Part shown: positions 15,001 through 25,200 of the stretch, one piece after another
Position numbering within the stretch: the first letter of the stretch is position 1
Layout: every line of letters starts with the position of its first letter
Assembly (NCBI GenBank): GCA_001800285.1
Contig: MGVC01000075.1
Coordinates: forward strand, 19,058 to 83,057
Length of the DNA: 64,000 nt
Direction: 5' to 3'
Source: Elusimicrobia bacterium RIFOXYA2_FULL_39_19
GTDB lineage: Bacteria; Elusimicrobiota; Endomicrobiia; CG1-02-37-114; XYA2-FULL-39-19
Notes under the pieces: generated by a model
Told to the model about the DNA's origin: nothing
Seen by the model: only the letters and a program-made list of their open reading frames with translations
Database searches by the model: none
Translations under genes and position numbers: made by a program

Positions 15001-17756
15001 ACCAGTGCATATCAGAGGCAGAAACAAAAATAAGTTCCTTCAACATAGGCGGAGAATTCTATGAATACCTGCCTACATCTACTCCTCTGCCGTTTGATTT
15101 AATAGTAGAATCCACTAATACGCTTACAGGTACCTTCCCGTCAAGCGGACAACAGCTGTTGGTGAAGGTGGGCGATGAATTGATGAGATACTCGGTAGCG
15201 GGTACCACTATTACGGCTACAGGACAGAAGCCCTATCTCAAGATAGTTGAACGCGCTAAGTATGGAACAGCAAAAGCTCAGTATTATTCGGGCCAGCCGG
15301 TTAAGAAAATTGACATGTTTGATTTAAATAATGATTTAAGCAAAACAAAACTTATTTATCTGACAAACATGCAGAAAATTAATCCGTCGGACCAGACCTA
15401 TTTCATAGTTTACGATATCGGAGACAATGCGGTTGCGGGAAATGCTGTGGGCTTAAAGATGTCTGACAAAAGTTGGATTAAAATAGCGCAGCCTCACCTG
15501 GTTTCACCGGAGCTGGTGCTGGAAACCGGCGCGGGCGTGCAGATAGGCGATAAAACAAATTATGATTCCTGCAAAACCAGCCTGCTGCCCATAAACCCGA
15601 TCAACCTTATAGTAAGGTCTGAAAATTATGCGCCGGTTTCGTCAAAACAAGGTACCACAAATGTGCCTCTGGCATCCCTTCGCCTGAAATCAAATATGAA
15701 TCACATTATTTTAAGCCAATTAAATCTTAAACAGACAGGAACAGTTACCGCAACCAATACGCCTGGAAAAGGACAGGGTGATTTCTCGTCGGTAAGTGTC
15801 TGGAGAGAAGCTGTCAGCGTAACTCAGCCTTACGGCGACGGCAGATTTGACTCATCAACCGATATTATGATTTCTTCTACAATTCATTCCACCGGCGCAA
15901 GCCCGAATATGAGTTTTGTTTCTGGCAATGCCAGTCTGCCTCTGGGCGCAGGAGGCATATATATTTCAACCACGGAAGTAAAACTTTACATTGTGGCTAA
16001 CATAGGCCTGCTGGATTTGGCAAATCAGTCAACGGAAAATGACCTGGCGGGCATGCAGTTGTATGATTTCAGCGGCCTGGTAATTATACCTCAGACCTCT
16101 GTTTCTGATACCAACAACACTTTCCCGTATAAATCAACGGAACTGAAAATATTAAACCAGAATGCAATTATTCCTTTGCCTTATGCGCCGGTGCCTACGG
16201 TATGGACTGACTATGGCGACGGTTATCCAGCCATAGACGAAAGCAATCCACTAGACGGTACTCCGGAACGGGTGCTGGATAAAGATGGGAATGTAATAGT
16301 TGATTTCAACGGCGACGGCATAAATGACCTGGAAGATTTAAACGGCGACGGCGTTAAAAATGAAATAGATCTTGACGGTGACGGATTGTTTGATATTGAC
16401 ATGGATGGTGACGGCCAGATAGATCTGGATTTGAACTACGATGGTATAAAAGATAATATTAAGCCGGACGCCAACGGTGACGGCATACCGGACATTGACC
16501 TGGGTTATGACAACATAGTTGATGATTACATTCCGTTGAGATGGGTAAACAGTCGCGTAAAACTTTATTCCAAGTGGTTCCCGAGAACAGGAACACAATA
16601 CACCGGTTTGAAGTATCTTATGAGCATCGGTAAAGGCCCGGATGAAACTGAAACATCGGTATCTGCCGGCTGGATAACTACCGAAGATATCAAATATACA
16701 ATAAGCGGTGTATCGCTTGAAGAATTAAAGTCCACCAAGCTAAGCGCAGATATTCTTGAAACTTATGATGCGTATCCGCTGGAACCGCTGACAATAAAAG
16801 TTGAAAGTGTTAATAATTTTAACACAACTTCCGGCGGCTATATTTACGTCGGGTTGGGTAAAAATGCTGAAATTATGCACTATGCAACGGCAGGAAGCGG
16901 GGGCTCAGGAACAGGTTTGTATTATGTCTTTAACATTGATCAGCGTGCCTGTTTCGGTACAAATAAGAAAACGCATCTTTCTGGTACAGCTGTTTCAAAT
17001 TCATTCTACTACTACAGATTGAAAGTTAAAAATGCATCAGGAGTAACGGGCCCTTCAGTGCTTTCAAGTATCTACAGGGTAGATATAAAAATACCTGATG
17101 AGCCGCGCAATATACAGACAGATTCTGCTTTGAAAAATGCGGAAATTTATACTCTGAAAATTTTATGGGATAAATCTTCCGACGATTTATCAAGCGTCCG
17201 CTTGTACGAAGTCCAGGAAAGCATGGATACGGATCCAAGATGGAAGAGAATTGCCACTATACCGTTTACTTCACTAAGCTTGTCTTTGGATAGAAGCAAA
17301 GGCCATTATTATTATTATAGAATTCGTTCGCAGGATTGTTCCGGCAACTGGAGCACCTGGTCAACTACGGTCAAGATAAATACCGGCAAACCTCCGGAAG
17401 TAATATCGCAGGTAACCAATTATCCGAACCCTGTTGATTTGAGAAAAGGAGAAGCTGAAACCTATGTAACTTATGTCCTTAACCAGGATGCAAATGTTAC
17501 CATAACTTTGTATGACCTTCTTGGTTATAAAGTTTACGAATACAGCGCATCTCCCGGAGAAGTTTGGTCCGGAGTCGGCAAGCCCTGGGTTGACGGTAAA
17601 GGTAAAGGCGGCTCGGCTGGTGTTAACGTAATGGTATGGAACTGCAGAAATGAAGCAGGAGACATAGTTTCCAAAGGTGGTTACATCTGCCATATTAAGG
17701 TCCAATCAGATAAAGGTATTGTGACAACCATCCGCAAGATAGGTATAGTCAGGTAA
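1..17756 (+). CDS. Giant repetitive cell-surface (adhesin-like) protein, 5'-truncated by the window edge (>5,900 aa visible)
   Basis: Single uninterrupted 17.7-kb ORF. The frame is open from nt 3 (no in-frame stop upstream of the TTG at 36), so the true start lies upstream of the window. T/S/G/N/V/A/Y-rich, beta-type sequence. It holds two tandem module families, an Ig-like middle region, an acidic Ca-binding-like repeat, then FN3 plus a C-terminal beta-sandwich-like domain. Stop TAA at 17754-17756. Confidence 0.9.
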   Translation, partial: DLYFNPVANDSLVYLNTSDSWDVHPSTNALETGTTIFSVTLVTAGSAHRIYAVDSAIAPDGYFLSTDTSPVITAAPNTTNANNFALQIVAPGVSPVPGKPPYPPDATGGRSGSPNYQTAGQEFEVTVNLVDPYWNIVGTGYDQQVQLMKINKTEGPADQYGIYTSSRPLINGTTTFKFEFRTAGPASFSPLTWSSWTITVSDVDSNLPNYSDAVTPLIQVSPGTRSKMQVLVPGETWAPGKTTGKLGKTEGSTPDVYVAGSTFTVTVHACDSFWNVVDTAPVVGLYQHYDAANNTAGDPNAATTTPLSQALTNGRGLYIAKLVTATTPYVETNTGPWRMKTTNNLGMTNWDDETQNYGTTQLLKVRAAAPTKLLTLVPSQTARLGVGSGRQGTVATQFAGQQFDVTVYVTDEMWNVVTGTGATNVTLTTTDPYDDESGYSGATTLGRALIPVTFSRGMDEQYSITASTSTGRPEAYASNTSDLITSRYWTATKLQIIVPGETAEPGKMSGQAGKLDSSNPSNQVADEMFRVTINITDDRWNPVPTAGSKVKLISNDIYFSTITNQDIAGGTGYLWPKLMTATTSGWTLNVSTDAGGSAHYTAHTSPAIRVLPGNPSKLLVRAPGENLLPGSATGKTDAPNYATAGTTITVTVYATDSKYNQAYSSAVVRVYTNDSYSVSMSSKQLVDGTTTFDVLFLTANAAPLDGTTQKYAVVIATHMKELDAPGISYTLTIGTVSVPVTPENGKYLLLLVPGETHVPGKPPYAPITNAGGGKTGTPNTLYAGVTYYATVLVCDPYWNIDITPTDTDPYVKVRTTDPFDDSYEAASGIVDGVRTFSFRPQRATLQQKTLIDKTTVSAEHDTGTTLFSRSESIGLDVLPQQNIPQYPRHLLVLAPNETHVPGSTLGKQNTISNKKAGEKFSASVYGVDAFNNICDDVQPNITLTSTDANDNTAAGQPEYSWDPLTQPLFTGTTVFNIQLVTANTYHFLIAIDNDATVPDYGSAYSSGVYIDPGRPDKLQVLVPGETSVPNTVLGKSGTPSEMPNKQFKAGESFFITVNATDVLWNIQTEISPNVYVESSDQYGTKNNSLSVTNGSEETSITVYNAEMAGLTGYATHYIKSYPLAEINYNGDDILLSTGTSSDLKVYPALVSRYHLIVPNEIAAPGKGPYDGTGGKNYSVSFQTAGVVFPVTVRATDNYYNVCTTAVIGGVSITVTDPYSGYSRSQGLTQGQNVWNNVYMYTASTWAVRAAGSLGTFDSSILRIIPDRAQRLRILSPGEQADPGNVPTRGRKTNIYPTGHMAGESFGVTVDATDDYYNMVSTSGIRVAITTDDLYDTHPSTKTLASGTTSFLVTLVTKQDTIITATTDYCSNYRYDYTQPIGISTNVPYRIQLLVPGETHVDGKISGTQPGKTEDSLPLSQVAGAAFTVTALCVDQYYNLTDENPSITIISDGADGDPYDTPAIGRTQWLSNGQYVFSGLEQFNFVTRNNDTGNGWKIRMSAFSWSEGEGYPGILANTIPSERVPVAPGLSNKVQVLVPGELSSWGNQAGYGKADDPALTGSGAIDQTAGVAFEITSYAVDSYYNRATNTTAGGAETSLLSLASGNPYKTFTPDSQALIQDSTITFTVTLYKAATSQLTLSDTESPYIDNGVSSVLALNSSAPVTTVLLLPNQTIDSGKPPYYPSGWGGKTGAVATQTAGTTFYATVQAVDKYWNPYSDVSLVTINTPDQFDFNPTTAALNATGYRVYDVNIVTVGTYTLTAFDTDGISGNGYNGGTELNLGVSSPVYCAPGTPSKLLVLLPGENGTPGKPQSGKTGTPDTQTAGTVFDVTVQLTDANWNRVTNGTMPTIELASTDVYWSTPLARPLNQGQFIFAAQLLTAATHSISASGGGYSGLSSTFTVNPKVADPIKYLVILPGQEQVNGKYGAAFEPQGRRGNATVQIAGARFTPTIYATDEYWNRISTSQLVTVTIDDAYGQLSNAVLPTDDYSVSATLSVNMTNGIAVVNTVRSRKAGTHTITATDNDGVDPAINQSLANTLTVISGDPERLMIFAEGEASDAGRAPTPNNYPNNPTGGKSTTDLPYSKAAGDLFDVTVRVTDKYWNMASSQQAIKIYTNDGNTVYNSANKYSTVVTTEVIVNDIFSFVSAGTRVLYVEHSSYTGSNYNRTQNVTVTPGAASRLLVKMPGQTFDPGSNLGKFNDPAIVTQTAGTSFDVEVAITDSHFNIVPGAVGTMVLYTPTDPYDVEPAQVNITNIDPGYIPISFTTGLKRAATYHYIVAEELYGAYTKYPYNAPDYAISTFTVLPGTPDHLQLVLPGETPAWGLNVSTANGKTGYPSNQTAGAIFEVTVNLVDNYYNTYSREIFPSLPAITMPEVTVETNDPYDANSSTSPLGDMTASRTFQMQLVTAATWHMLWTKDVDGSDPRYITDVSSRQFTVNPSTPAFLLVVVPGETHVPGKWNIPPYGRTDTQPTVHPAGDAFNIDVVLTDIWYNRIMSGVDMPSCTVTTWDYQDSEPTIQRLASGSRAFSVRPLTASSSWTCVSVDWSTAAVKYTSKESSQIRIWPDAAYYMQGTNYIDPVRGSTWAYAGADYNVRVNVKDRYNNLCSTGSTRYTGEVQFVAEIAPTNFVNTLQNPEPLPGSGGEYYTFTEADAGTHLFTIKLKKTGARWINWRQRTDALIGTDRSGYVNNPVIEVRPGDPSKFAFATPDPWTDPIYVKAGTSGGVANRQQVKAFVADAYENQVSSSNISAVLSVVDVFGSSGTIKDASGNVITSTTTDSNGEVGGLGKELYYEVSTTGGHYAKVQVSTAAGATITGKSVNIMTTGGDLYRFQFVTTPSDIEASAGNIKSTVFTFEKRDYWNNPTGETNIVSLSIGTQLKTDSPSVLNSQKKYWNKTTDTMLSMYDVAIPNWPAAVWPVPAANSQASFRYSDMYASWPAGEDGSQGTATAALPARPSIGKWTARVEYGTYVGSTTFTVNPGAITQVGFDVIPSTTLPLLAGIVYNNQNSLQVLEIETQDTYGNPRPVNVTTTMNLQSDSNANNSLLIDYLQRLTFENEVDAIATTEYGRNYSFSLTSSPWMHTSTAAISAGAYAAQFWYADTKASKAYPPYHIATSTMPHVKALGGGWETPGSGQYIPIVAAPIKKLAIVSPHQSLTAGTTSQAFLLQTQDRFSNPSPVITGEEVMSIFDLNSTGIGSVRFAAPTPAYGWFAKPAVDIAVLTIGDDTTSFYMIDTKVGDYQVSAQNPAKTDWSVAVQTYSVTAAAPQHIAFVTPSRRLIAGTTIAFAANGGASLGTAVGISTYTGYNPFSSQPLPLPLTLYSNRVQTMTVTSIQLRDEFDNVATSTETISLIYTCVNSTSAHAGENPVKDLMLTADWPSICEGGFLPGIIPAGSNEHSIYFFDTKAGTSTLKAEGTMGGVVLAPALQEQYITPATARFLTVHHNYPMTNPLPVNLPGSITIKARDRYGNLVTGDSTNGQYYKGIIKFTHNGSSTAVTLKGMPGSTTFYMYTEADRGTWQGLQIINQMQESLKISATHYASPVTQALDYPVEGEVFGWTNDGLRGLREQSSQDLVTSGIKVMPILDPDHLLKNSNYYPSRTISKKVYQGDGDIVENFQPFDMLGLTMVTLPVEANLTGKLEQIKVEKIGNTPSKDISMMSLYYDSSLSYFFDPELVWHGQPTDTKLADAEYDAGTDAWYFRNLSASPMASINTVPKTYFITVRMSTSATSGTYFGLRLQSYQSIITSGTVTVAQNNFEIVTTTWTVEKSPPKVYAQLTDIAAYYQLEGTTQPFTYSYMQQGESDIGMLKIALRCPEFQGAISEINVGRTGTGEDYDIVGTKIYMDGKDSGPNDGRIDAGSNPDGNLQPGGDDALTDWVEFTDRSARCLLSTPQLIEATTRYFFITFKVENSATPGYTHGAKINGITLSEGTMQSYASIESTKVVVMPTIDEVNVYNVNKQETSVSSITFGITNVVTQGDKNIPVIKLTMATVKRTGLWSGLRLDRSISRNAGSGSPDGTISLPTDVDKIQLWYDSNDNGMFEVTDSMVVDQNQQYSQMAFPVSALLEDIDASTDVIKVGDINTFFPPFCSVPRAPGRLIIDDSGDISKLEIVTYTGVDMNQNMFTGVSRGQDRTSAKAHVSGAIVSGQARLDIVGTVSSVQEIKQTPKNYFITYDYSPICTVDSSLKLGVEIPSTGYFMINYPDYVGNVQAQIGLRAPRNNQWLGSEWVASGWTESYVSQIKEYADDVLVKPTDYIYTDNLVQGSVDNVLAQFTMETDMSEAQWYAVRIYSTGTAVYDGGGVMEEVPVVKVWYDTNRNNILNKSPLEPYAYTGADYDMLVGSDTFANAGDLVATVIRFNSDKIQKIITASRAGTSTSQKYFITYDISDSALPTNPGNGEPKTLGVRFTAESFPTDSDNLIQTEDDFISEPNNLDPAGLPWQSALKKIVASPRTVFIKSTPIFSDEDPKEEGTLSSYDAPRLKGDMTASANTLYLFSNDTLGRTTPTLGLPSSGYVMLDGEIIKYTSKDANSLIDLTRGVLGSLAVSHSSGTVLGVQITQSVKNFAVEKLELWVDGFQVEMGTITMNRTIPSTLLKGDDSDLLSIKVYRDDNVNGRLDRIAAAAYRGQVSADTLVGSGIYNNTKAQLYLNDPVINRKYILVTTTPTVYFITYDVNPSAKFSHPLISWQNEMLGSEITDENKIGVNNPSADEKHKVSTYVPVGLGQIPAYPIRTANMPIVATVDTMYGTPSDELVSPVERFAENVAVVKLTMQTNKNSALWDSLRVDMTGTGVDADISKVRIWKVISSTSEYSVFESTEMVNNEICGLMSYGSDLFTEKTATLVLKAEEKYYESRTITASPKVFYVTYDISQFAQIGETVGASILDRSYFSVQVPDEVEFLWNTAPFITKEAEIKEVQSTVFATVSDSVYYVHFGSGTFQSQPNVDMMRLKLRTDKSNCDWEAIQIERTGTGGPQDQTKPEGRNSDVKYIKIFRDANLSGSLDPDDQCISEAETKISSFNIGGEFYEYLPTSTPLPFDLIVESTNTLTGTFPSSGQQLLVKVGDELMRYSVAGTTITATGQKPYLKIVERAKYGTAKAQYYSGQPVKKIDMFDLNNDLSKTKLIYLTNMQKINPSDQTYFIVYDIGDNAVAGNAVGLKMSDKSWIKIAQPHLVSPELVLETGAGVQIGDKTNYDSCKTSLLPINPINLIVRSENYAPVSSKQGTTNVPLASLRLKSNMNHIILSQLNLKQTGTVTATNTPGKGQGDFSSVSVWREAVSVTQPYGDGRFDSSTDIMISSTIHSTGASPNMSFVSGNASLPLGAGGIYISTTEVKLYIVANIGLLDLANQSTENDLAGMQLYDFSGLVIIPQTSVSDTNNTFPYKSTELKILNQNAIIPLPYAPVPTVWTDYGDGYPAIDESNPLDGTPERVLDKDGNVIVDFNGDGINDLEDLNGDGVKNEIDLDGDGLFDIDMDGDGQIDLDLNYDGIKDNIKPDANGDGIPDIDLGYDNIVDDYIPLRWVNSRVKLYSKWFPRTGTQYTGLKYLMSIGKGPDETETSVSAGWITTEDIKYTISGVSLEELKSTKLSADILETYDAYPLEPLTIKVESVNNFNTTSGGYIYVGLGKNAEIMHYATAGSGGSGTGLYYVFNIDQRACFGTNKKTHLSGTAVSNSFYYYRLKVKNASGVTGPSVLSSIYRVDIKIPDEPRNIQTDSALKNAEIYTLKILWDKSSDDLSSVRLYEVQESMDTDPRWKRIATIPFTSLSLSLDRSKGHYYYYRIRSQDCSGNWSTWSTTVKINTGKPPEVISQVTNYPNPVDLRKGEAETYVTYVLNQDANVTITLYDLLGYKVYEYSASPGEVWSGVGKPWVDGKGKGGSAGVNVMVWNCRNEAGDIVSKGGYICHIKVQSDKGIVTTIRKIGIVR
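260..7830 (+). repeat. Family-A protein modules: ~19-20 tandem ~230-aa units inside the giant ORF
   Basis: Recurring anchor 'L(L/Q)VLVPGET.(V/A)PGK....GK(T)G.P..QTAG..F.VTV.A.D.YWN.V', then '..V.L...D.....P....L..G...F.V.L.TA'. Examples: LLLLVPGETHVPGKPPYAPITNAGGGKTGTPNTLYAGVTYYATVLVCDPYWNI; LLVLLPGENGTPGKPQSGKTGTPDTQTAGTVFDVTVQLTDANWNRV; LLVVVPGETHVPGKWNIPPYGRTDTQPTVHPAGDAFNIDVVLTDIWYNRI. I counted about 19 clear anchors plus one degenerate copy. Confidence 0.8.
8080..10700 (+). other. Ig-like (bacterial Big/invasin-type) beta-sandwich region of the giant ORF
   Basis: A strand signature typical of invasin/intimin-type Ig domains recurs every ~100-130 aa: KAFVADAYENQVSS, EKRDYWNNPTG, IETQDTYGNPRPV, LQTQDRFSNPSPV, IQLRDEFDNVATS, IKARDRYGNLVTG. 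Domain boundaries were not resolved by eye. Confidence 0.45.
10730..16090 (+). repeat. Family-B protein modules: ~8 tandem 170-250-aa units inside the giant ORF (unassigned fold)
   Basis: Each unit starts like 'V.V.KL.M.T....A.W.SLR(V/L)D.TGTG.D.DI..V.IW.D.N.NG..D' and ends with a '(K/T).YFITYD(I/V)...A' strand. The ending strands are KTYFITVRMSTSATSG, RYFFITFKVENSATPG, KNYFITYDYSPICTV, QKYFITYDISDSALP, TVYFITYDVNPSAKF, KVFYVTYDISQFAQIG, QTYFIVYDIGDNAVAG and KLYIVANIGLLDLAN. Confidence 0.7.
16300..16515 (+). repeat. Acidic D-x-(D/N)-G-D-G calcium-binding-like repeats (thrombospondin type-3-like) in the giant ORF
   Basis: DFNGDGINDLEDLNGDGVKNEIDLDGDGLFDIDMDGDGQIDLDLNYDGIKDNIKPDANGDGIPDIDLGYDNI. 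There are six or seven D/N-G-D-G units about 8-11 aa apart. Confidence 0.6.
17080..17390 (+). other. FN3-like domain preceding the C-terminal domain of the giant protein
   Basis: PDEPRNIQTDSALKNAEIYTLKILWDKSSDDLSSVRLYEVQESMD....RIATIP..SLSLSLDRSKGHYYYYRIRSQDCSGNWSTWS. It shows the FN3 W...Y...Y.(Y/F)R(V/I) pattern. Both downstream cargo proteins have the same FN3-then-CTD arrangement. Confidence 0.6.
17398..17753 (+). other. C-terminal Ig-like sorting/anchoring-type domain (T9SS-CTD / FlgD-Ig-like)
   Basis: VTNYPNPVDLRKGEAETYVTYVLNQDANVTITLYDLLGYKVYEY....VMVWNCRNEAGDIVSKGGYICHIKVQSDKGIVTTIRKIGIVR. The pattern is '(Y/F)PNP..., ...V.I.(I/L)YD..G..V......W.G.N..G..V..G.Y......' and it ends at the very C-terminus, as in T9SS C-terminal sorting domains. 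Assignment is by eye only. Confidence 0.5.
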
Positions 17757-17932: not shown

Positions 17933-17961
17933 TTGACTTTTATGTAAACATGTACTATATA
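17933..17961 (+). promoter_or_regulatory. Sigma70-like promoter (TTGACT-17 nt-TATATA) for the downstream cluster
   Basis: TTGACT at 17933-17938, exact 17-nt spacer, TATATA at 17956-17961. It sits in a 565-bp intergenic region and is followed by a perfect 8-bp stem / GGGG-loop hairpin (caggatag-gggg-ctatcctg, 17967-17986) at the predicted 5' end of the leader. Confidence 0.6.
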
Positions 17962-18104
17962 TATACCAGGATAGGGGGCTATCCTGAAAATCAATGAATT
18001 TAAACAAATTTCACAGTGTTATTACTAGTTACTAATTGTACGGATTAATAATATTACATTATTATTAATAATCTGTATAATATAATAACAATTGTTCTTT
18101 ATTA

Positions 18105-18200: not shown

Positions 18201-18265
18201 ATTACGCGGTTTACGTGATCGATTTTTTTTGCAGAAACCGTGTAACAAAGATGTAAACGAAAAGC

Positions 18266-18320
18266 AACCCGAAAGTTTCAAGTAAGTTTTGCGTTAAATA
18301 ATTGAAATTCGGGTTTTTTT
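18266..18320 (+). terminator. Terminator-like hairpin + U7 tract (candidate riboswitch expression platform)
   Basis: AACCCGAA (18266-18273) pairs with TTCGGGTT (18308-18315), with an inner TTTCAA/TTGAAA helix. A T7 run (18314-18320) follows, directly abutting the first possible start codon of the next gene. The aptamer 3' segment GGGTT (18186-18190) could alternatively pair with AACCC of the 5' arm as an anti-terminator. Confidence 0.55.
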
Positions 18321-18321
18321 A

Positions 18322-20034
18322 TTGCTGGGAAGCACTCCGATGTCAAACGTAAAAGGCGAAATCGGAGAAAAAGACAAAAAAACTAAAATGAAAAGAATAA
18401 ATACAACAAATTATAGCGGAATTGAAAACAGCGTGAAAATCGCTGTTAAAGCTATTTTTGTTGTATTTTCTTATATAACTCTCACCTTAGCCCCCATCAT
18501 TTCTCTAATCAACCCCGTTGCACAAGCATCCTCATCAGGTGGTCAGCCTTGCCAATTCCTCCAGTGGGCAGCCGGCGCAAGATCACTTGGTATGGGTAAA
18601 GCATTTTTCAGCGTAGCTGATGATGCCAGTGCCACTTACTGGAATCCCGCAGGATTAACCCAGATTGACAGACAGGAAGTAATGGCTTTGCACAGCAATC
18701 TTTGGGCCGGTACATCTTATGATTTTATTTCTTATGTTCAGCCGACAGCGAAGTACGGAGTATTCGGAGTAAATATAACCAGAATGTTTACCGGCGGTTT
18801 TGAAAGAGTAAATTTTGGTTATAACGAAACAACCGGCGAAATCACCTTTTTAAAAGGCGAAGAATTTTCAGATGACCAGCTGGCTCTGACTTTCGCTTAC
18901 GGCAGAAGAGCTATGAAAAATCTTTCAATCGGACTTTCAGCAAAGATTATTCAGAGAACTCTGGATATCTACACAGACAACATGATTACTTTTGACGGCA
19001 GTGTGCTTGTACAGGGATTCAATTCATACCTGCCGGGCTTAAAAGTAGGGTTTGGAATCAACAACATTCTTACCCAGAGCTTTAATACTCTGGATGTCCT
19101 GCCCATGACTCTAAGGCTTGGAGCTTCACACAAATTCTTAAGAGATAAACTGACAGCTTCTTTTGATATTGTGAAAAACATGAAAGCAAACTCTTCCTGG
19201 TCACTGGGTGCGGAATACTGGCTGGTGAATTTTGTTGCCCTGCGCCTTGGTTTTGACGGCGACCAGGGGTTCCGTGAATCCAGTCTGGGCCTTGGTTTCA
19301 AATACAAAGATTATGGTATTGATTATGCTATGGCAATTCATGAATTGGGCGTTTCCGCCATGAGAGTCAGCGGTTCATGGAGATTCGGTAAATCTGTGGT
19401 TCAGAACAGAGATGCTATGGTCAGAAGGCTTATCCAGGAAGGGCTGGAATCTTACCGCAAAGGCAATTTCCTTATTGCATTTAACCGTCTTGAAAAAGCT
19501 TCCGGGATTGACCCGACAAACAAAGAAGTTCAGAAAATACTGCGCAAATTGCAGACTGTGGTGGGTTATGTAACTTCAGCTTCTGCTGATACGGAAGAAT
19601 CTAACGGTATCCGCAAAGGTATCAGTTCTTATATTGAAGATGATTTCTCCGGCATGGTAAACGGTTTAAGATATGCTTATTATAAAAATCCTCAGAATGA
19701 AAAAATTATCCAGCTGCTCAATGCCCTGGAAAAAGAAAACAATCTGTCTCTTACGGAATCTTACAGAGAAGGCCCTGGCGGCTGGACTATTATTGATAAA
19801 AAGATATATGACGCACGTCAGTCAGTAGTAGAAGGCAAATATGACCAGGCCTTAATTAAATCTCAGGAAATCCTGAATCTGGAGCCGGGCAATGTAACAG
19901 CTCTTGAAATTATGGGTAGCGCATTCTTCATGATGCAGCAGCCTGACAGAGCCAGAGATGTATGGAAAAAAGCTCTTGAACTTGATCCTACTAACAAGAT
20001 GCTTCAGGACTTTATATATGAACTGGGAGAATAA
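18322..20034 (+). CDS. Outer-membrane beta-barrel of the FadL/PorV superfamily with C-terminal TPR extension
   Basis: Signal-like stretch AIFVVFSYITLTLAPIISLINPVAQA, then the N-terminal barrel signature AAGARSLGMGKAFFSVADDASATYWNPAGL. About 290 aa of alternating beta-strand sequence follows (ALRLGFDGD, SLGLGFKYKDYGIDYAMA). The last ~200 aa are TPR-like (GKYDQALIKSQEILNLEPGNVTALEIMGSAFFMMQQPDRARDVWKKALELDPTN). The TTG at 18322 abuts the leader T-run, so ATG 18340 or ATG 18388 (MKRINTT...) are more likely starts. Confidence 0.75.
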   Translation: MLGSTPMSNVKGEIGEKDKKTKMKRINTTNYSGIENSVKIAVKAIFVVFSYITLTLAPIISLINPVAQASSSGGQPCQFLQWAAGARSLGMGKAFFSVADDASATYWNPAGLTQIDRQEVMALHSNLWAGTSYDFISYVQPTAKYGVFGVNITRMFTGGFERVNFGYNETTGEITFLKGEEFSDDQLALTFAYGRRAMKNLSIGLSAKIIQRTLDIYTDNMITFDGSVLVQGFNSYLPGLKVGFGINNILTQSFNTLDVLPMTLRLGASHKFLRDKLTASFDIVKNMKANSSWSLGAEYWLVNFVALRLGFDGDQGFRESSLGLGFKYKDYGIDYAMAIHELGVSAMRVSGSWRFGKSVVQNRDAMVRRLIQEGLESYRKGNFLIAFNRLEKASGIDPTNKEVQKILRKLQTVVGYVTSASADTEESNGIRKGISSYIEDDFSGMVNGLRYAYYKNPQNEKIIQLLNALEKENNLSLTESYREGPGGWTIIDKKIYDARQSVVEGKYDQALIKSQEILNLEPGNVTALEIMGSAFFMMQQPDRARDVWKKALELDPTNKMLQDFIYELGE

Positions 20035-20140
20035 ATAGATGAACGCAATAATAAATGCAATAATTGCAAGTTTTGCAACTAAGCCAATGTATTTAGGAAT
20101 TAATAATTATAATTATTATATAAAGGGAGTGAAGACTAAA

Positions 20141-22009
20141 ATGAAAAACATTAAAATCCTTATGTATCTGGTTGTTGTCTTTGTTGTTAATCTGGGCTCG
20201 TTTCCTCTTGTGGCTCAGGTAAAGGACCAGGTAAGCCCGGATGTAAACACATCCCTCTACTTGCTTGAACAGGAAACAAATTATGAAAAAGAGCAGGCAG
20301 ACTATGTGCAGAAGAACATTCTTGACAGGATATTCGGTAAAGGCAAATCATCAATCATTATAGATGTCCAGCTGGGGCTTGAAACCGAAAGACAGTTAAG
20401 CGAAGCGAAGGAAAGAACTTCTGAAAGAAAAAGAAAAATGGGCGATATTGAATATATGCTTCCCGGTATTCCCAACCCTAAACCCGTGTCCCAGGAAACT
20501 CCGGCGGGAGAAAGCAAAAGCGAAGCGGGTGAAAAAGCCGCCAGTTCAGTTACCACCAAAATGACAGTTAAAAAACTTTACGTAGTTGTTGTGCATGACC
20601 AGGCATTAGCCCAGGATAAAGTGGATGTAGTAAAAGAAACCATAGCAGCTTCGTTAAAAATAGATACAAAACGCGGCGATGAGCTTATTTTCAGGAAAGC
20701 AAAATTTGCCAGCGATATTATGCTGGTTATTATGGACACTATTGTAAAACCGCAGTTTTTAATTCCGGTTTTCATAGCGCTTCTTCTGTCTATGTTTTTG
20801 TTCGGGCCGTTTTCAAGCTTTTTGAAAAACTATGTTAACACCCTGCGTGAAAGAGGCGGCACGGAAATCAGCGTGGATTCAAAACTTGAAGGTGCTGGAG
20901 CGGGCGCCCAGGGTGCGGGAGCAGGCGGTGGCGGCGTGGGCGGTGTGGGTGGATTAACAGAAGCTGAGATAGCCGAAAAAGAAAGAAAAGAAAAATCAGA
21001 AAAAGAAGGCGAAGAAGAAAAGTACATGCCTTTTACTTATATCAGCGATGAAAATTTAAGAAGGTTAAGCTACATAATTTCCAAAGAAACACCCGCTACC
21101 ATAGCGCTTGTATTAAGCTATCTTAAACCTGAACATGTCAGGGAAGTGCTGACAAACTTATCCGAAACGCTCCAGGCGGAAGTGGCTGTTAATTTAGCCA
21201 CTGCCAGGCAGCTTACCCGCGATGAAGTTGTCAGGATTGATGCGGACATAAAACAGAAAATCGATTATCTTGTCGGCGGTATTGACCAGCTTCTGAAGGT
21301 TGTTGAACAGGTGGACCGCGTAACCAGAAACAATATATTTGAATACCTGAAAAATGAAAAACCGGACATGTACAATATTGTCAGGCAGCACTTGTTTTTA
21401 TTTGACGATGTGGTAATAATACCTGATCAGGCCATGCAGGTTGTAATCAGAGACCTTAAAGTGGAAAATATAGCGCGCGCTTTAAGAGGGGCTGCCAAAG
21501 AAGTCATGGATAAATTCTTTGCCAACATGAGTACTGGTGCTAACAGCCTGGTAAAAGAAGAAATGGAATATGGCAAGCAGATGACTACTGAGCAGATTGA
21601 AGAAGAGAGAAACAAGATAGTTGAAACAATTAAAAAACTTGAAAGTGACGGGAAAATATTCATTCGTGAAAAACCAAGATTAGTTCTTGAGGGTGTAGAG
21701 GCCAGCCAGGAATCCCTGTTGTCCGGAGTGCCTGCAGATGTTCTGGAACAAGCCCAGGAATACTTTAACTATGGTGCGAATCTTTACAATGAAGGCAAAC
21801 TTGAAGAAGCTATCCAGTACCTGGAATACTGTATTTCTCTTGACCCGGGTAACGTAGACGTATATCAGTACCTGGGAAATGCCTACTACAGCCTGGAAAG
21901 GTATCAAGAAGCGCTGGATAATTTCCAGAAGGCACTGGAGTATAATCCGGAAGACGCAAATTTGAAGGGTTTTGTTGAGCAGTTAAAATCTATGTCAGTA
22001 GTGAAATAA
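20141..22009 (+). CDS. FliF-like ring domain - TM - FliG-like (middle + C-terminal) domain - TPR fusion protein (non-flagellar context)
   Basis: Start moved to ATG 20141 (RBS AGGGAG upstream; MKNIKILMYLVVVFVVNLGSFPLVAQ is a signal peptide or TM1).
- The periplasmic part resembles the FliF/YscJ ring-building region: YVQKNILDRIFGKGKSSIIIDVQLGLE...VKKLYVVVVHDQ....VDVVKETIAASLKIDTKRGDELIFRKAKF.
- Then come a TM segment (FLIPVFIALLLSMFLFGPF) and a Gly-rich linker.
- A clear FliG-like sequence follows: ETPATIALVLSYLKPEHVREVLTNLSETLQAEVAVNLATARQL...GGIDQLLKVVEQVD...LFLFDDVVIIPDQAMQVVIRDLKVENIARALRGAAKEVMDKFFANMSTGANSLVKEEMEYGKQMTTEQIEEERNKIVETIKKLESDGKI.
- The C-terminal ~90 aa are TPR (EGKLEEAIQYLEYCISLDPGNVDVYQYLGNAYYSLERYQEALDNFQKALEYNPED). 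Confidence 0.75.
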   Translation: MKNIKILMYLVVVFVVNLGSFPLVAQVKDQVSPDVNTSLYLLEQETNYEKEQADYVQKNILDRIFGKGKSSIIIDVQLGLETERQLSEAKERTSERKRKMGDIEYMLPGIPNPKPVSQETPAGESKSEAGEKAASSVTTKMTVKKLYVVVVHDQALAQDKVDVVKETIAASLKIDTKRGDELIFRKAKFASDIMLVIMDTIVKPQFLIPVFIALLLSMFLFGPFSSFLKNYVNTLRERGGTEISVDSKLEGAGAGAQGAGAGGGGVGGVGGLTEAEIAEKERKEKSEKEGEEEKYMPFTYISDENLRRLSYIISKETPATIALVLSYLKPEHVREVLTNLSETLQAEVAVNLATARQLTRDEVVRIDADIKQKIDYLVGGIDQLLKVVEQVDRVTRNNIFEYLKNEKPDMYNIVRQHLFLFDDVVIIPDQAMQVVIRDLKVENIARALRGAAKEVMDKFFANMSTGANSLVKEEMEYGKQMTTEQIEEERNKIVETIKKLESDGKIFIREKPRLVLEGVEASQESLLSGVPADVLEQAQEYFNYGANLYNEGKLEEAIQYLEYCISLDPGNVDVYQYLGNAYYSLERYQEALDNFQKALEYNPEDANLKGFVEQLKSMSVVK

Positions 22010-22045
22010 TATATAAAGCGGCTAGCAGAAAGCGGTCAGGGAAAA

Positions 22046-22207
22046 ATGCAAACAGTTATCAAAACATTAATCATGCTAAATGACAACCTGGAAAGCTTAA
22101 CCCCCGTAAGAAGCGGTGGCTGCTCTTTGGTAGCCGCAAAATACGACGGGTACAGAGTTTACTTCTACGGGGGTAGAACAATTCTTGTATCCGTCACGGA
22201 ATTATAA
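22046..22207 (+). CDS. Possible small protein (53 aa), unknown function
   Basis: Read by hand; it is below the ORF-track size cut-off. ATG at 22046 follows AGGG 4 nt upstream. Translation: MQTVIKTLIMLNDNLESLTPVRSGGCSLVAAKYDGYRVYFYGGRTILVSVTEL. It fills most of an otherwise unexplained 220-bp gap in a tightly packed cluster and its composition is not low-complexity. Confidence 0.3.
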   Translation: MQTVIKTLIMLNDNLESLTPVRSGGCSLVAAKYDGYRVYFYGGRTILVSVTEL

Positions 22208-22230
22208 CTATATTTATCGGAGGTTCACCA

Positions 22231-25200
22231 ATGGATTTATTTGAAAAATTCAGATCTAAGAAAAAAGAAGATGTTTTAAAGAAAACAGAAAACGAAAAGC
22301 GCATTGAAAACTCCCAGACAAAAAAGGAGCATCTGCTGGCAGACATTAAACTGATTGAACAAAAAATTTCAGATCAGAGAGAGTCAGCTTCAGAAAAGCT
22401 TAAACAGAAGGATGAGGAAATAATTAAGCTTAACCTGCAGGTGGAAACTATCGAAAGAAAACATGTATCCGGACAAACAGCCGGACAAAACGACACCCAG
22501 CAGCTGCAGAAAAAATGGAAGGATGAATATGACAGATTTGAACAGATGATGGAAAAAGAACGGCAGGGCTGGGAAAGCAAAATAGATTTGAAAGAACAGG
22601 AATTTGAATCCGAAAAGAATAAAATAGAAATTGAGGAAGCCCAGGAAAAATACAGTATTGAACAGCAGAAAAATGAAATTGAAACAGAAATCGATACTCT
22701 GGAAAGACAGAAACATTTATATGAAGAAAGGCTTAATAATGAGCACGAAATATTTTCAACAAGAATACAAAGCAAAGAAGAAGAAATAGTTTCTTTAAAA
22801 GCCCAGGTGGCTTTAAGAGACAGCCAGATGCGTTCTGATGCCGAAAAAAATTCACTGGTAATAAGGGATTTAAAGGAAAAGTTGGACCTGCAGTTTAAGG
22901 CGGCAGCAGAAAAGCTTGAAAAGCAAATTGAAATCTGGAAAAACAAATACAGGGCCAAGGAAAATGAATATATTACCTTTCGTGCACAGGCAGAACAGCG
23001 CCACGGTGAACTTGTTCTTAATTATGACGGAAAGCTTAAAGAATTAAATACAGAAAAATCAGCAATTCTGGAAGAAATAAGCCTCTTTGAAAATAAAATA
23101 TTCCAAGAAAAGCAAAAATATGAAACAGGTCTTAAAAAACTTGATGAAGAAGTGAATAACCTGCGCATAGAAATAATGCTGAAAGAATCTCAAGTAAAAA
23201 CAGAGCAGGAAAATAACAGGTTGCAAGTTGAGCAGGAAACAATCCGTGTAAAAAAGCAAATAGAAGAACTGGAACAGAAATTCATTTCAGAAAAGGAAAA
23301 CAATGCAAGAATAATACAGGGAAAGGAACAGGAGCTTGAAACTCTTAAAATACAGGCACAGCACAGATTTAGCGAAATAAATGGCAATGCTGAAAAAGTA
23401 CGCAAGGCATACCAGTACGAAAAAGAATCCCTTTTTGCTCAGATAAAATCACTGGAAGAAAAGCTGGAGCAGGATAAAAAATATTACCAAAACCAGGCAG
23501 AGCTTAAAACAACAGAAATACAACAGGCCAGGCAGGAATGGGAACAAAAACAAAAAGAAATTCTTTTCGGACATGAAAAGATACTGGGCGAATTAAATGA
23601 AGAAAAGGCAATACTGGAAAAGGCCGCAGAAGAAATTCAGGGAAAATACACGCAGGAAAAAGTATCACTGCAGAAAAAACTTCAGGAGAAGGAAAAGGAA
23701 ATACAGCAGAAGCTAGCGGAAACAAGAACCAAGGAACAGGCATTAAAAGAAGATCTTAATAAATTTGAAAAAAACCTTGCAGATGAACAGTTGCCGCTAA
23801 AGAACAAAGTAAATGTGCTGGAAGCCAGGATAAATGAGATAAACCAGAAAGGAGCAAAGGCTGTTGAGGAACATGAAAAGGCCCTAGGCCAGCTTCGTGA
23901 AGAAATTAAAAACAGGCAGGAGGAATATAAGCAAAACCTGCAGGCAAGAAAAGGAGAAATTGAAAAAGAAAAAGAAATATTAAAGAACAGAATCAACATT
24001 TTGGAAGTGCAACTTAAAGAAAACATAGAAGCCTTTAATGTGCAAATAGATAAAAAGCAGCAGGAAATTCAGGAAATTGAAAAACAGATTTCTGAAAAGT
24101 TAAGCAAAAGCGACGAAATAAAAAAAGAGAAAGAAAGACTGCTGCGTCAGGAAACAAAAATGCTTGAAATAGAAGCATTGGGCCTTCAAAAGAAAACTGA
24201 AACAGAAGAAAAAAAGTTTTCAGACCTTATAACAACCAACGAGCTTAAGAAAAAAGAACAGGAAGAAAAAGCGGCTATAGGAGAACAGTTACTTAAAAAC
24301 AAAATAAATGACCTGGAAAACAGGTGGGAAATAGAAAAACAAAAATCGGAATCAGAAATTGAATCTTATAAAAAGAAAATAGAAGAAGAAAACATAGTCC
24401 ACAACAGAAAAAGACAGGAAAAAGAAGCATGTATTGAAGAACTAAAACAGAATATATTCAGGCAGGAAAACAGTTTAAGGGAAGAACTGATAGTCATAGA
24501 AGAAAGAATCTTAAAAGAGAGAGAGCCAATTCAGGTAAAACGAGATTCGCTCGTATTGAAAATTAAAGAAACCGGACACTCAATACAGCTTCAACTAAAA
24601 GGATTTGAAGAAGAAATAGCCAAGCTAAAAGACAGAATGCAGGAATCAGAAAAGATATTGTCCCAGGCTTACGGGCTGAAAGAAAGTGAGATTGCCAAAG
24701 AAAGGACTGTTTACCGCAACACATTCAAAAACATTTTAAAAAGTATCGAAGAGTTAAGAATTACATCAAAAGAAGTACTGCAAGAAAAAGAAAATGAAAT
24801 AAGACTTTTGCAAGAAACCATGTCCCAGGATGTACAGAAGTTTTCATCCCAGGCAACTATAATGCAGAATGAGTGGGAAGGCGTAAAAGCGCAGCTGCAG
24901 GAAGAAATTGACAAGCTTGAGGAAGATTATAGAAATATTGAAACAGAGCTTCCGGGAATATTACAGGAGAAAGAATCACAAAAGCAAAAATTACAGGAAT
25001 TGATACTGCAGTATGACCAGGAAACACAAAAACAAAAACAAAAGATTGAACAAACCATTGAAAAATATAAAAGAAGAGCAGAACAGAAAATACAGGAAAC
25101 AAATAAACTATTTGATACGGAAAGCAGAGACCTGGCAGAAGCTCTTGAGAAGAAAGAACGGGAATACGAGTCAGTCAGAGAAGGATTGGAAAACGAAAAA

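Follow-up and report, generated by a model that had tools for sequence, protein, structure and literature searches.

A fusion gene among genes for envelope proteins

The window analysed here, a stretch of 64,000 nucleotides from Elusimicrobia bacterium RIFOXYA2_FULL_39_19, contains a plus-strand open reading frame (ORF), ending at 22009, in which parts of the flagellar proteins FliF and FliG are joined. Two starts are possible. ATG 20141, used in the first-pass annotation, has a Shine-Dalgarno-like AAGGGAG ∼11 nt upstream and gives a protein of 622 aa (20141..22009; ORF list and Pfam); ATG 20039, with a Shine-Dalgarno-like GGGAG 9 nt upstream, gives 656 aa (20039..22009) and is the start in public gene calls. 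Residues are numbered below from ATG 20141, and all parts of the gene are on the plus strand.

From N- to C-terminus, the protein consists of a signal peptide or first transmembrane (TM) segment, a FliF RBM3/collar-like domain, a TM helix, a Gly/acidic linker, FliG_M, FliG_C and TPR. The N-terminal hydrophobic segment MKNIKILMYLVVVFVVNLGSFPLVAQ (aa 1–26, 20141..20218), evident from sequence and hydropathy and helical at residues 2–18 in models, either serves as a signal peptide and is cleaved off or stays in place as a first TM anchor like that of FliF. The Gly-rich stretch GAGAGAQGAGAGGGGVGGVGG (aa 251–271, 20891..20953) sits within a low-complexity Gly/acidic cytoplasmic linker (aa ∼241–292), of which residues 241–272 have pLDDT <50 in the AlphaFold model and which is variable and Gly/Glu-rich in all aligned homologs. 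The C-terminal TPR cap (aa 532–621, 21734..22003) matches Pfam TPR_2 at 3.3e-15 and TPR_1 at 9.9e-13, and is modelled as five helices, ∼2.5 TPR units, with pLDDT >90 for the helices of 532–621. The first-pass annotation had described a Gly-rich linker between two halves and an appended TPR cap, and both are present. The strings that it quoted, ETPATIALVLSYLKPEHVREVL, LFLFDDVVIIPDQAMQVVIRDL, ARALRGAAKEVMDKFFANMSTGANSLVKEEMEYGKQMT, KKLYVVVVHDQ...KRGDELIFRKAKF and GAGAGAQGAGAGGGGVGGVGG, all occur in the ORF, the fourth directly preceding a hydrophobic helix.

The gene upstream (18322..20034, plus strand) ends 4 nt before ATG 20039 and encodes a PorV/PorQ-family outer-membrane barrel with a C-terminal, periplasmic TPR; it matches NCBIfam NF033709 (PorV_fam, 129.4 bits against a cutoff of 90) and Pfam UPF0164 and TPR. 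Two more barrels in the window fall below the NF033709 cutoff (66 and 45 bits), and Pfam PorP_SprF is matched in 44763–46247 (30 bits against 22.3). A giant surface protein (36..17756, plus strand), its 5′ end cut by the window, is 12,255 aa long on the full contig; its last ∼115 aa (17412–17753) form a T9SS-CTD-like domain, which matches the PorU C-terminus at 4.7e-7 and Por_Secre_tail at 18.9 bits, below the cutoff of 23. Pfam CHU_C scores 30.0 bits in 30357–34916 and 26.6 bits in 39680–44773, against a cutoff of 27. These Pfam and NCBIfam matches bear out the earlier description of the neighbours as outer-membrane barrels and giant surface proteins.

Directly downstream of the fusion gene is that for a 1597-aa cytoplasmic coiled-coil protein (22231..27024, plus strand) with a TPR at aa 1554–1585. 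Between the two lies a 53-aa ORF (22046..22207, plus strand), which has no family match and is called as a gene in four of the four public contigs carrying the locus. A second cytoplasmic coiled-coil protein, of 1091 aa and with a Pro-rich N-terminus, was identified from its sequence (27045..30320, plus strand); hydropathy gave no TM segment in either coiled-coil product. The operon in the window also includes genes for a HATPase_c protein (46248–47363) and a GGDEF protein (50424–51524). Promoter and terminator scans were uninformative.

Pfam was run on nearly all window ORFs of at least 150 aa, the giant ORF being scanned only at both ends, and no flagellar gene was found among them. Neither these ORFs nor the annotated flanks of related loci contain genes for a type III export apparatus, rod, hook, filament or FliM/FliN. 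No Pfam or NCBIfam match to the type IX secretion system (T9SS) core proteins GldK/L/M/N (PorK/L/M/N) or SprA/Sov was obtained in the scanned window ORFs, so that any link to adhesin secretion rests only on the PorV-like barrels and the weak CTD matches.

The periplasmic half is a FliF RBM3/collar-like domain

AlphaFold, Foldseek, hhalign and profile searches identify residues 33–190 (20237..20710) as a periplasmic domain resembling the RBM3/β-collar of FliF. It comprises a helix (33–64), a long strand (70–86), an insert (87–134), a second long strand (135–153), a helix (158–171) and a final strand (181–187). The insert, corresponding to the collar, is predicted with low confidence; it carries P108, P111 and P113, invariant in the family alignment, and reads LPGIPNPK in the window protein.

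A sequence-profile search of the PDB with the N-terminal alignment gave only marginal matches (SpoIIIAG, E 0.036; FliF, 0.9), so a fold search and an exhaustive profile search were needed to settle the identity of this domain. In a Foldseek search of the PDB the top 18 matches were all FliF MS-ring, S-ring or RBM3 structures (E 8e-7 to 6e-5), with PrgK/PrgH 19th and SpoIIIAG 20th (E 1e-6 for FliF RBM3 against 2e-2). The domain aligned with E. coli FliF aa 222–466 in hhalign (E 1.1e-5), and a profile of the N-terminal family retrieved genuine FliF at E 5e-10 and 1.2e-9. Pfam YscJ_FliF_C is matched by the N-terminal part alone at 20.5 bits, below the cutoff of 23.8, over profile positions 2–145 of 147; 16 of 22 family members match it (best E 1.5e-6), and the relatives P0240, P0210 and P0216 exceed the cutoff with 44.5, 34.9 and 26.0 bits. 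The RBM fold is common to this domain and to the rings of sporulation (SpoIIIAG) and of the injectisome (SctJ/PrgK). SpoIIIAG is the best match by PDB sequence profile, yet lies far below FliF RBM3 by fold; like SctJ, it is neither fused to FliG nor partnered by MotAB.

The domain is followed by a membrane-spanning helix (aa ∼193–236, 20717..20848; hydropathy, with a model helix at 204–239), which hhalign aligns to the TM2 region of E. coli FliF and which is the counterpart of TM2. The proposal of a FliF-type ring-building motif ending just before such a helix is thereby upheld by fold search, hhalign and profile retrieval. It applies, however, only to the RBM3/collar part and not to the whole periplasmic region of FliF: the fusion has only ∼160 periplasmic residues and no match to RBM1–RBM2 (Pfam YscJ_FliF, PF01514), which genuine FliF proteins (P0254 and P0262) match at 1e-36 to 1e-68. 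RBM1 and RBM2 surround the export gate in FliF. The cytoplasmic C-terminal tail of FliF, which binds FliG_N, is also missing, and the Gly/acidic linker instead runs straight into FliG_M.

The cytoplasmic half consists of the middle and C-terminal domains of FliG

The FliG middle domain occupies aa 308–375 (21062..21265; Pfam FliG_M 2e-15, 57.2 bits against a cutoff of 25) and the C-terminal domain aa 402–508 (21344..21664; Pfam FliG_C 1.2e-26, 93.5 bits against 23.3). The hhalign alignment to E. coli FliG begins at residue 118 and extends to 324, and the family profile matches T. maritima FliG_MC (1lkv) at E 3e-59. In Foldseek, 13 FliG structures rank first for the cytoplasmic half (1lkv at 6e-12 with 33% identity; 1qc7_B with TM 0.94 and rmsd 1.2). 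The assignment to FliG_M and FliG_C, made at first by eye, is thus secure.

The first-pass annotation had recognized that these helices might instead be an MgtE_N-type or other helical repeat unrelated to FliG, joined to a periplasmic domain without any ring-building motif. Weak matches to MgtE_N (only 36 residues, at E 0.0024 and with 18.8 bits where 25.9 are required) and to FliG_N (E 0.0068) do fall on the same helices. Nevertheless, MgtE_N scores far under the FliG domains, and the FliG_C, FliG_M and FliG_MC profile scores, together with the FliG and FliF structures that head the two fold searches, refute this reading, which we regard as virtually eliminated.

A Gly-Gly hinge (G379–G380), invariant in the family, lies just downstream of FliG_M, and an MFxF-like motif, LFLFDD, is present. 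There is no separate FliG_N, the sole Pfam match overlapping FliG_M at aa 320–372. The EHPQR motif that binds FliM appears from the alignments to be degenerate and mostly absent: EHPQ is reduced to E316-T-P318-A, R160 maps to N in hhalign, and the family consensus keeps only the E and P. Within the torque-helix region (aa 449–482, 21485–21586), mapped residue by residue to E. coli FliG, three of the five classic charges are kept (K264 as R449, D288 as E473, D289 as E474) but two are lost (R281 to G466, R297 to T482). In 33 of 33 aligned sequences the D288 equivalent is E; the family consensus also has E for D289, and most sequences have R/K at the K264 position; the motif KFFxNMSxGAxxLxKEEMxY is among the best-conserved stretches of the protein.

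The fusion and its gene order are conserved in Elusimicrobiota

We found 163 homologs with the same length and layout. Relatives occur in at least 169 species-level genomes, nearly all of the best 80 being labelled Elusimicrobiota, and most of the loci listed have intact full-length ORFs, down to 32–35% identity. The usual gene order is a CTD-bearing protein, giant or small, a PorV/PorQ-family barrel with TPR, the fusion, and one or more cytoplasmic coiled-coil proteins. The barrel is found in 62 of the best 80 loci, and lies immediately upstream of the fusion in the loci mapped. In seven related loci the CTD-like domain stands alone as a protein of 122–161 aa just upstream of the barrel gene (examined with Pfam on one of them, L019). 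The most widely kept downstream partner is the 1091-aa coiled-coil protein (tblastn matches in 64 of the 80 loci); the 1597-aa protein is kept after the fusion in Endomicrobiia-type loci.

One genome (L054) has a second, paralogous gene set in which the order is repeated. In some variants (P0210, P0238) HisKA and HATPase_c are fused to the N-terminus, and the same order surrounds a divergent variant fused to a histidine kinase (L233). Another variant, P0208, lacks the TPR and is followed by two Response_reg-GAF proteins; the phylum of its contig (L232) was inferred from a LigA gene. P0216 has no relative among GTDB representatives, and the TPR-less variants diverge too far for their alignments to serve in genome scans. 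In one genome a soluble FliG_MC-TPR paralog is encoded between parA and parB.

Stator genes accompany the fusion in most lineages

In ∼50 of the 80 loci, flbD-motA-motB and a lipoprotein gene lie directly downstream (FlbD 1e-21, MotA 3e-27, MotB plug 4e-12, MotB OmpA 5e-15); these are every locus not of the Endomicrobiia type that extends far enough. In the 64-kb window, hmmsearch with MotA and MotB profiles found nothing, and no Endomicrobiia-type locus has stator genes within 10 kb of the fusion gene. A first MotA scan of genomes returned only the 80 closest Elusimicrobiota copies, none from the lineage of the window. Repeating the scan led by a divergent paralog spread the ranking and exposed unlinked copies: five sister genomes of the window's lineage have an orphan flbD-motA-motB cluster among housekeeping genes. 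The statement that the locus has no flagellar genes therefore holds for this window but not for most other lineages of the phylum, in which flbD-motA-motB is part of the same operon. The presence of stators in the operon in most lineages, and unlinked in sister genomes, strengthens the idea of a repurposed rotor.

In aligned relatives MotB D32 and MotA P173 and P222 are invariant. In flagellar motors the acidic pair of FliG contacts MotA R90, which here is always K or R, the unlinked lineage included. No such fusion lies within 8 kb in the MotA2-like loci of Glassbacteria, Gemmatimonadales, Marinimicrobia, Firestonebacteria and Bacillota. Since PADLOC returned only generic MotB/ZorB similarity, we set aside a Zorya-like role in defence.

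Could the gene be an ordinary fliF–fliG fusion that works in a standard flagellum whose other genes lie elsewhere? Flagella are predicted for some Elusimicrobiota groups, and the whole genome from which the window comes was beyond inspection. Nevertheless, the absence of RBM1/RBM2 and FliG_N, the degenerate FliM-binding motif and a score of 123.9 bits against the 226.7 required by the NCBIfam fliG equivalog (TIGR00207) all speak against it, as does the lack of flagellar structural genes in the sampled annotated flanks and near the orphan motAB clusters. Consistent with this, fliG and motAB without structural flagellar genes have been reported (10.1101/2022.07.08.499144). We consider this explanation very improbable, and the related suggestion of a misplaced fliF/fliG pair fails because the gene is a conserved fusion lacking RBM1/2 and FliG_N.

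It seems still harder to credit that the locus is a decaying relic of an ancestral flagellum, without present function. Its components are all of flagellar origin and the phylum is largely non-flagellated; but the ORFs are intact in most loci with functional residues invariant, MotA is 64–100% identical across the 80 best loci, and new partners, themselves conserved, and new domain combinations have arisen in the family.

Discussion

Conserved in a mostly non-flagellated phylum beside a barrel, surface proteins and usually stators, the fusion looks like a reused flagellar motor core. We favour, with some confidence, the view that it supplies the rotor subunit, seated in the inner membrane, of an envelope machine that is driven by stators and derives from the flagellar motor but is not a flagellum. 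The suggestion in the first-pass annotation of a repurposed rotor or ring scaffold for a non-flagellar surface machine is supported by the domains and synteny, rotation and cargo being inferred. Domain identities, family conservation, synteny and the conservation of key residues are computational observations; that a ring forms and rotates, that it is physically linked to the barrel and the coiled coils, and what it drives are inferences from evidence that is all genomic.

In such a machine the RBM3/collar-like domain would oligomerize into an S-ring-like ring, as FliF RBM3 does, and the single polypeptide would set one FliG middle and C-terminal unit beneath every subunit of the ring, with a covalent link instead of the contact between the FliF tail and FliG_N. 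MotA/MotB, anchored to peptidoglycan, would push the FliG_C torque helix and turn the ring, without an export gate, rod, hook, filament or FliM/FliN switch. The ring would be flanked by the PorV/PorQ-family barrel, whose TPR tail is envisaged as reaching into the periplasm, and by CTD-bearing giant surface proteins; the TPR cap may hold the long cytoplasmic coiled-coil proteins. The output may involve surface adhesins, most plausibly their movement, secretion or tensioning in a gliding-like manner. The fuller proposal, that Elusimicrobiota possess an unrecognized envelope-spanning rotary machine in which a one-protein MS-ring/FliG rotor, turned by MotAB, is coupled via the PorV-like TPR barrel to giant CTD adhesins for gliding-like transport or secretion, we offer only tentatively.

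The absence of stators from the window and from Endomicrobiia-type flanks, and the loss of R281 and R297, count against a rotor. They would suit a static envelope-spanning scaffold, in which a non-rotating ring forms a polar or cytoskeletal hub by anchoring the coiled coils to the envelope, the FliG fold is merely an armadillo module that binds proteins, and MotAB has a different task or senses load. Two very long coiled-coil proteins always follow the fusion, TPR modules form the C-terminus of both the fusion and one of these, and the soluble paralog between parA and parB suggests a role in cell organization. A scaffold does not readily explain why the linkage of flbD-motA-motB to the operon is strict in ∼50 loci and in divergent variants, why the FliG acidic pair and MotA R90 are both kept, even where unlinked, or why the torque-helix motif is so well conserved, and we think it unlikely, though worth retaining. 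Signalling or mechanosensing, with ring and stators informing two-component or c-di-GMP pathways of envelope load or of contact with a surface and doing no mechanical work on cargo, could account for the kinase-fused variants P0210 and P0238, the Response_reg-GAF proteins of L232, and the HATPase_c and GGDEF proteins in the operon of the window. Most variants, however, have neither the kinase fusion nor the response regulators, and the partners that stay constant (barrel, coiled coils, stators and lipoprotein) are structural; this possibility appears to us decidedly remote.

The rotor reading is best judged against known systems. With the flagellar rotor core (FliF and FliG with MotA/MotB) the fusion shares an RBM3/β-collar-like periplasmic domain followed by a TM helix, FliG_M/FliG_C, the Gly-Gly hinge, the MFxF-like LFLFDD and the acidic pair of the torque helix; the family's MotA/MotB keep D32, P173, P222 and R90, and FlbD is encoded alongside. 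The flagellar core, however, is made of two proteins and not one, and the fusion lacks RBM1/RBM2, FliG_N and the FliF C-terminal tail, has a degenerate EHPQR, has lost R281/R297 and has gained a TPR cap. Its annotated flanks contain no export apparatus, rod, hook, filament or FliM/FliN genes, and its neighbours are instead a PorV-like barrel, giant surface proteins and coiled-coil proteins. FliF and FliG are likewise joined covalently in engineered fusions, which assemble rings in Salmonella and Vibrio (PMC6079021; PMC11481574; 10.1101/2023.02.06.527414). Those are laboratory constructs of full-length FliF and FliG within a complete flagellum, whereas the fusion in the window is natural, TPR-capped and trimmed to RBM3-TM and FliG_MC, and is found in genomes that reportedly have no flagellar structural genes.

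The T9SS and gliding motor of Bacteroidota (GldLM, PorV, PorP/SprF, SprB-like adhesins) resembles the fusion locus in having a PorV/PorQ-family barrel, here upstream of the fusion, PorP/SprF-like barrels with large CHU_C- or CTD-bearing proteins, here in the operon, and a giant adhesin-like protein gene adjoining the motor genes; a proton-driven stator of the 5:2-type family is the likely energy source in both. It differs in that Pfam found no GldK/L/M/N or SprA among the scanned window ORFs, and in that the stator is MotAB, not GldLM, and would act on a FliG ring, which the T9SS does not have. Moreover, Elusimicrobiota lie outside the FCB group in which the T9SS is known.

Most free-living Elusimicrobiota have been reported to lack flagellar structural genes yet to encode fliG, motAB and flbD homologues; some members are flagellated by report, and the magnetotactic ones are non-flagellated, with motility unexplained (10.1101/2022.07.08.499144). 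A published heat map shows no flagellar genes in Elusimicrobia (PMC7031533). Our literature search on FliG-like proteins, FliG in Elusimicrobiota, natural FliF–FliG fusions and the T9SS in Elusimicrobia found neither the fusion nor the operon described. To our knowledge, all earlier accounts of FliG place it in the flagellum. In the fusion, the half of FliG that receives torque is permanently attached to the half of FliF that builds the ring. The arrangement is conserved across a mostly non-flagellated phylum and is usually encoded with its own stator, and with outer-membrane and surface proteins that belong to another lineage of machines; if our reading is correct, the FliG rotor would here have its first use outside flagella, which bears on whether torque generation preceded secretion, or the reverse, as the flagellum evolved. 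If the ring turns, the flagellar rotor–stator module can work without a secretion apparatus or axial structures, non-flagellated Elusimicrobiota, magnetotactic ones included, may own a new device for motility or surface remodelling, and structural and evolutionary studies gain a natural minimal rotor. The idea is directly testable in Elusimicrobium minutum, which has a cultured representative: a metagenome-assembled genome labelled as this species (L078) carries the locus with the full operon.

Domain composition of the fusion protein

The fusion gene is a single open reading frame on the + strand with its stop at 22009. Two start codons are available, each preceded by a Shine-Dalgarno-like motif: ATG 20141, taken in the first-pass annotation, gives a protein of 622 aa, and ATG 20039, used by public gene calls, gives one of 656 aa. 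Residues are numbered here throughout on the 622-aa form. The cytoplasmic half had been read as the middle and C-terminal domains of FliG with an appended TPR cap; all of the peptide strings then quoted are found in the translation, and both assignments are borne out. Pfam placed FliG_M at aa 308–375 (E 2e-15), FliG_C at aa 402–508 (E 1.2e-26; 93.5 bits, cutoff 23.3) and two TPR units at about aa 540–607 (TPR_2, E 3.3e-15), while a family profile of 33 members matched the middle and C-terminal domains of T. maritima FliG (1lkv) over the whole chain at E 3e-59. The AlphaFold model of the fusion has a mean pLDDT of 77, exceeding 90 across FliG_C and the TPR units. When this model was searched against the PDB with Foldseek, the first 13 matches were FliG structures (1lkv, E 6e-12, 33% identity), and its FliG_C superposed on 1qc7_B with a TM of 0.94. 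The alternative that this region has a non-FliG fold is poorly supported. MgtE_N was rejected as its identity, with a Pfam E of only 0.0024, under the cutoff for that family.

No FliG_N domain is present in the fusion, and the alignment with E. coli FliG starts at residue 118. Where the flagellum has the contact between the FliF tail and FliG_N, the fusion has instead the Gly-rich linker proposed earlier to join its two halves, a Gly/acidic segment (aa about 241–292, pLDDT <50) running from the membrane helix to FliG_M.

Individual residues were mapped on E. coli FliG, with family conservation taken from 33 sequences. The claimed likeness to the torque helix held in part when its charges were compared. 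The equivalents of K264 (R449; mostly R/K in the family), D288 (E473; invariant in 33/33 sequences) and D289 (E474; family consensus E) are charged, but R281 and R297 have been lost (G466 and T482). The Gly-Gly hinge (G379-G380) is invariant, and the MFxF motif reads LFLFDD, in which F421 is shared by at least 90% of the sequences and D423 is invariant. Only E and P of the EHPQ motif are retained in the family (E316-T-P318-A in the window), and R160, replaced by N, is not conserved.

The periplasmic half is related to FliF

Taken alone, the N-terminal half scored 20.5 bits against Pfam YscJ_FliF_C, just below the cutoff of 23.8, with profile positions 2–145 of 147 covered; 16 of 22 family members matched the same profile independently (best E 1.5e-6). 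The AlphaFold model predicts a helix (aa 33–64), a long strand (aa 70–86), a low-confidence insert (aa 87–134), a second long strand (aa 135–153), a second helix (aa 158–171) and a last strand (aa 181–187), after which comes the membrane helix. As modelled, this alpha-beta-(insert)-beta-alpha-beta order matches a ring-building motif that has a collar hairpin. For this domain, all of the first 18 PDB matches by Foldseek were to FliF (E 8e-7 to 6e-5 at probability 1.0), in the form of MS-ring, S-ring or RBM3/collar structures, with PrgK/PrgH and SpoIIIAG ranking below all of them. Profile comparison with hhalign aligned it to residues 222–466 of E. coli FliF, comprising RBM3, collar and TM2 (E 1.1e-5), and hmmsearch run exhaustively on 1.84 billion representatives recovered proteins at E 5e-10 and 1.2e-9 that are genuine FliF by Pfam and by source names, the matched span being FliF residues 237–448. 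Because all three methods indicate FliF, we conclude that the periplasmic half is homologous to FliF RBM3/collar/TM2, in agreement with the first-pass view of it as the ring-building region preceding the TM.

FliF RBM1 and RBM2 (PF01514) are absent from the fusion, and on the NCBIfam fliG equivalog model it reached 123.9 bits, below the cutoff of 226.7. The fusion is built of FliG and FliF domains yet is an orthodox member of neither family, and its reading as an ordinary flagellar gene is poorly supported.

Gene neighbourhood in the window and in related loci

The neighbours had been described as outer-membrane barrels and giant adhesins, and the genes upstream fit that description. The gene 4 nt upstream of the fusion encodes an outer-membrane barrel of the PorV/PorQ family (NF033709, 129 bits, cutoff 90) that has a C-terminal TPR, and the gene before it a giant surface protein (36–17756) that is 5'-truncated in the window and reaches 12,255 aa when the full contig of 90 kb is read. 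The first and last 1000 residues of the latter gave no Pfam match save a weak CTD-like C-terminus; its last ~115 residues weakly resemble a T9SS sorting domain, and this C-terminus is homologous to stand-alone proteins of 122–161 aa at the same position in other loci. The fusion is followed by a 53-aa ORF, then by a 1597-aa protein with a C-terminal TPR and a 1091-aa protein whose N-terminus is Pro-rich and whose C-terminus is acidic, both of them cytoplasmic coiled-coil proteins. At 22001–30000, coinciding with these two Lys/Glu-rich coiled-coil genes, GC is low (0.35–0.38) and AT skew very strongly positive (0.35–0.47). Two tandem cassettes follow, each encoding a large CHU_C/T9SS-CTD-like Ig/fn3 protein and then a PorV/PorP-like barrel ending in LysM (30357–37109, 1519 and 728 aa; 39680–46247, 1697 and 494 aa). 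The operon also has a separate HATPase_c protein (46248–47363), and the same-strand gene run ends with a GGDEF diguanylate cyclase fused to an AMPK1_CBM/CBM48 glycogen-binding module (50424–51524). Pyrimidine biosynthesis genes cluster at 53115–59364 (pyrR-like PRTase, ATCase, dihydroorotase, DHOD B subunits, OMP decarboxylase, OPRTase), and the first part of an HsdM gene for type I restriction-modification occupies 62881–64000; both appear unrelated to the fusion.

Of the 80 best related loci, 62 have a homolog of the barrel-TPR, which immediately precedes the fusion wherever gene order was mapped, and 64 have the 1091-aa-type coiled-coil partner. Next come flbD (PF06289, 1e-21), motA (MotA_ExbB, 3e-27) and motB (MotB_plug, 4e-12; OmpA, 5e-15) in about 50 of the 80, that is, in every locus not of the Endomicrobiia type that extends far enough. 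A conserved ~236-aa protein, homologous to the one in L057, follows motB in 37 of those ~50 and has a signal peptide of lipoprotein type in both examples inspected. In three loci (L057:16242-16952, L078:16707-17414, L233:15152-15748) the protein directly after motB is of lipoprotein type, about 200–236 aa with a signal peptide then Cys, for which no family match was obtained. The same gene order recurs around a kinase-fused variant on an unrelated metagenome contig (L233:10001-12544): giant protein, small CTD protein, barrel-TPR, fusion, 357-aa protein, MotA, MotB, lipoprotein.

Neither motA nor motB is within reach in the Endomicrobiia-type loci (L005–L020, L067), the type to which the window lineage belongs, or present in the window. 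Five genomes of this lineage have flbD-motA-motB on other contigs of their own assemblies (CALFVX01, JANXCA01, JBCNUU01, CAZLOB01, JBGFRZ01); where annotated, the neighbours of these clusters are LPS-core, LpoB, leuA or hisB genes and include no flagellar gene.

Conservation of the stators

Judged by their residues, MotA and MotB appear functional. In MotB, D32 does not vary and the motifs that bind peptidoglycan are retained; in MotA, P173 and P222 likewise do not vary, R90 is K/R throughout and E98 is E or Q. In flagellar motors, MotA R90 faces FliG D288/D289 and MotA E98 faces FliG R281. The first pair is conserved here on both sides; in the second the FliG side is lost (R281 to G) and the MotA side is only E/Q. 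Over the 80 best loci MotA is far more conserved than the fusion (64–100% versus 32–75% identity). The unlinked MotA of the window lineage retains R90, E98, P173 and P222, and the torque-helix motif of the Endomicrobiia-type lineage is conserved to the same degree. That the module is a mere relic of a flagellum is poorly supported.

A proposed rotor derived from the flagellar motor

The best-supported reading is that the fusion is a rotor derived from the flagellar motor: its RBM3 domains would make up an inner-membrane ring, each subunit bearing a single FliG_MC unit, and MotAB would turn this ring. The first-pass observation of a fusion is confirmed, and the proposal of a repurposed rotor or ring scaffold is supported, its case strengthened because the stators are operon-linked in sister lineages; rotation, coupling and output are still inference, and a static scaffold or a sensing device in place of a rotor are rivals. 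To our knowledge FlbD is found only with flagellar genes, and finding it here favours a module that arose out of a flagellar gene cluster over one that came first.

No export gate, rod or filament was found among the window ORFs scanned or in the annotated flanks of related loci, and without them the output of such a rotor must go via other parts. The constancy of the partners across loci suggests two links: in the periplasm, the collar loop, in which three prolines are invariant (an LPGxPxPK-type motif, LPGIPNPK in the window), may contact the TPR that forms the tail of the PorV-like barrel, and in the cytoplasm the FliG TPR cap may contact the coiled-coil proteins. Because CTD-bearing giant proteins are adjacent, the surface adhesins might be the cargo moved, secreted or tensioned. 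Both links and the adhesin output are inference.

Engineered FliF-FliG fusions assemble rings (PMC6079021; PMC11481574; 10.1101/2023.02.06.527414). Flagellar genes have been described as absent from Elusimicrobia (PMC7031533), and according to a preprint on magnetotactic Elusimicrobiota, the majority of free-living members of the phylum lack flagellar structural genes, yet have motAB, flbD and fliG homologues, whose role it calls unclear (10.1101/2022.07.08.499144). Our literature search found no published description of the natural fusion, its RBM3 half or the operon. The fusion is a new variant form of known flagellar parts; that its host system is a new kind of machine we put at slightly under even chances. 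The rotor idea is of high interest, being directly testable in a cultured species.

Distribution and variants

A search of 5.8 billion proteins gave 163 homologs, most with the same length and layout; where a name is given, it is 'FliG C-terminal domain-containing protein' and the source is an Elusimicrobiota or Endomicrobiia MAG. With one genome per GTDB species, 169 genomes have a relative of the fusion, and the best 80 of these are nearly all labelled Elusimicrobiota, one being a MAG assigned to Elusimicrobium minutum. The fusion is also carried by the complete genomes OY969767.1 and CP096137.1. No such fusion lay near MotA in the MotA-bearing loci fetched from other phyla. The exhaustive N-terminal search also recovered TPR-less variants of 450–525 aa with the same core, and variants of 833–847 aa (P0210 and P0238) with HisKA and HATPase_c fused ahead of the RBM3-FliG core. 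The contig of one TPR-less protein, P0208, encodes a LigA closest to Endomicrobiales/Elusimicrobia sequences (62%).

In Elusimicrobia bacterium RIFOXYA2_FULL_47_53, which also holds a full-length fusion (L012), a soluble 346-aa paralog consists of FliG_M, FliG_C and TPR without signal peptide, RBM3 or TM (MGVE01000015.1, L061:9974-11014; 46% identical to window aa 280–616). It lies between parA and parB, a position that could hint at involvement in organising the cell pole or the chromosome. A further locus (L232:4421-7814) has a 518-aa TPR-less RBM3-FliG fusion with a barrel-TPR and a Tricorn/PD40 propeller protein upstream and, in place of stators, two Response_reg-GAF proteins downstream. 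Finally, one genome (L054, identical to L159) has two paralogous sets side by side, at about 3600–7000 and 10001–22000. The second set comprises a barrel-TPR, a 421-aa protein, a 603-aa fusion of divergent sequence, MotA2 and MotB2; between MotA2 and the main MotA type, identity is only 30%.
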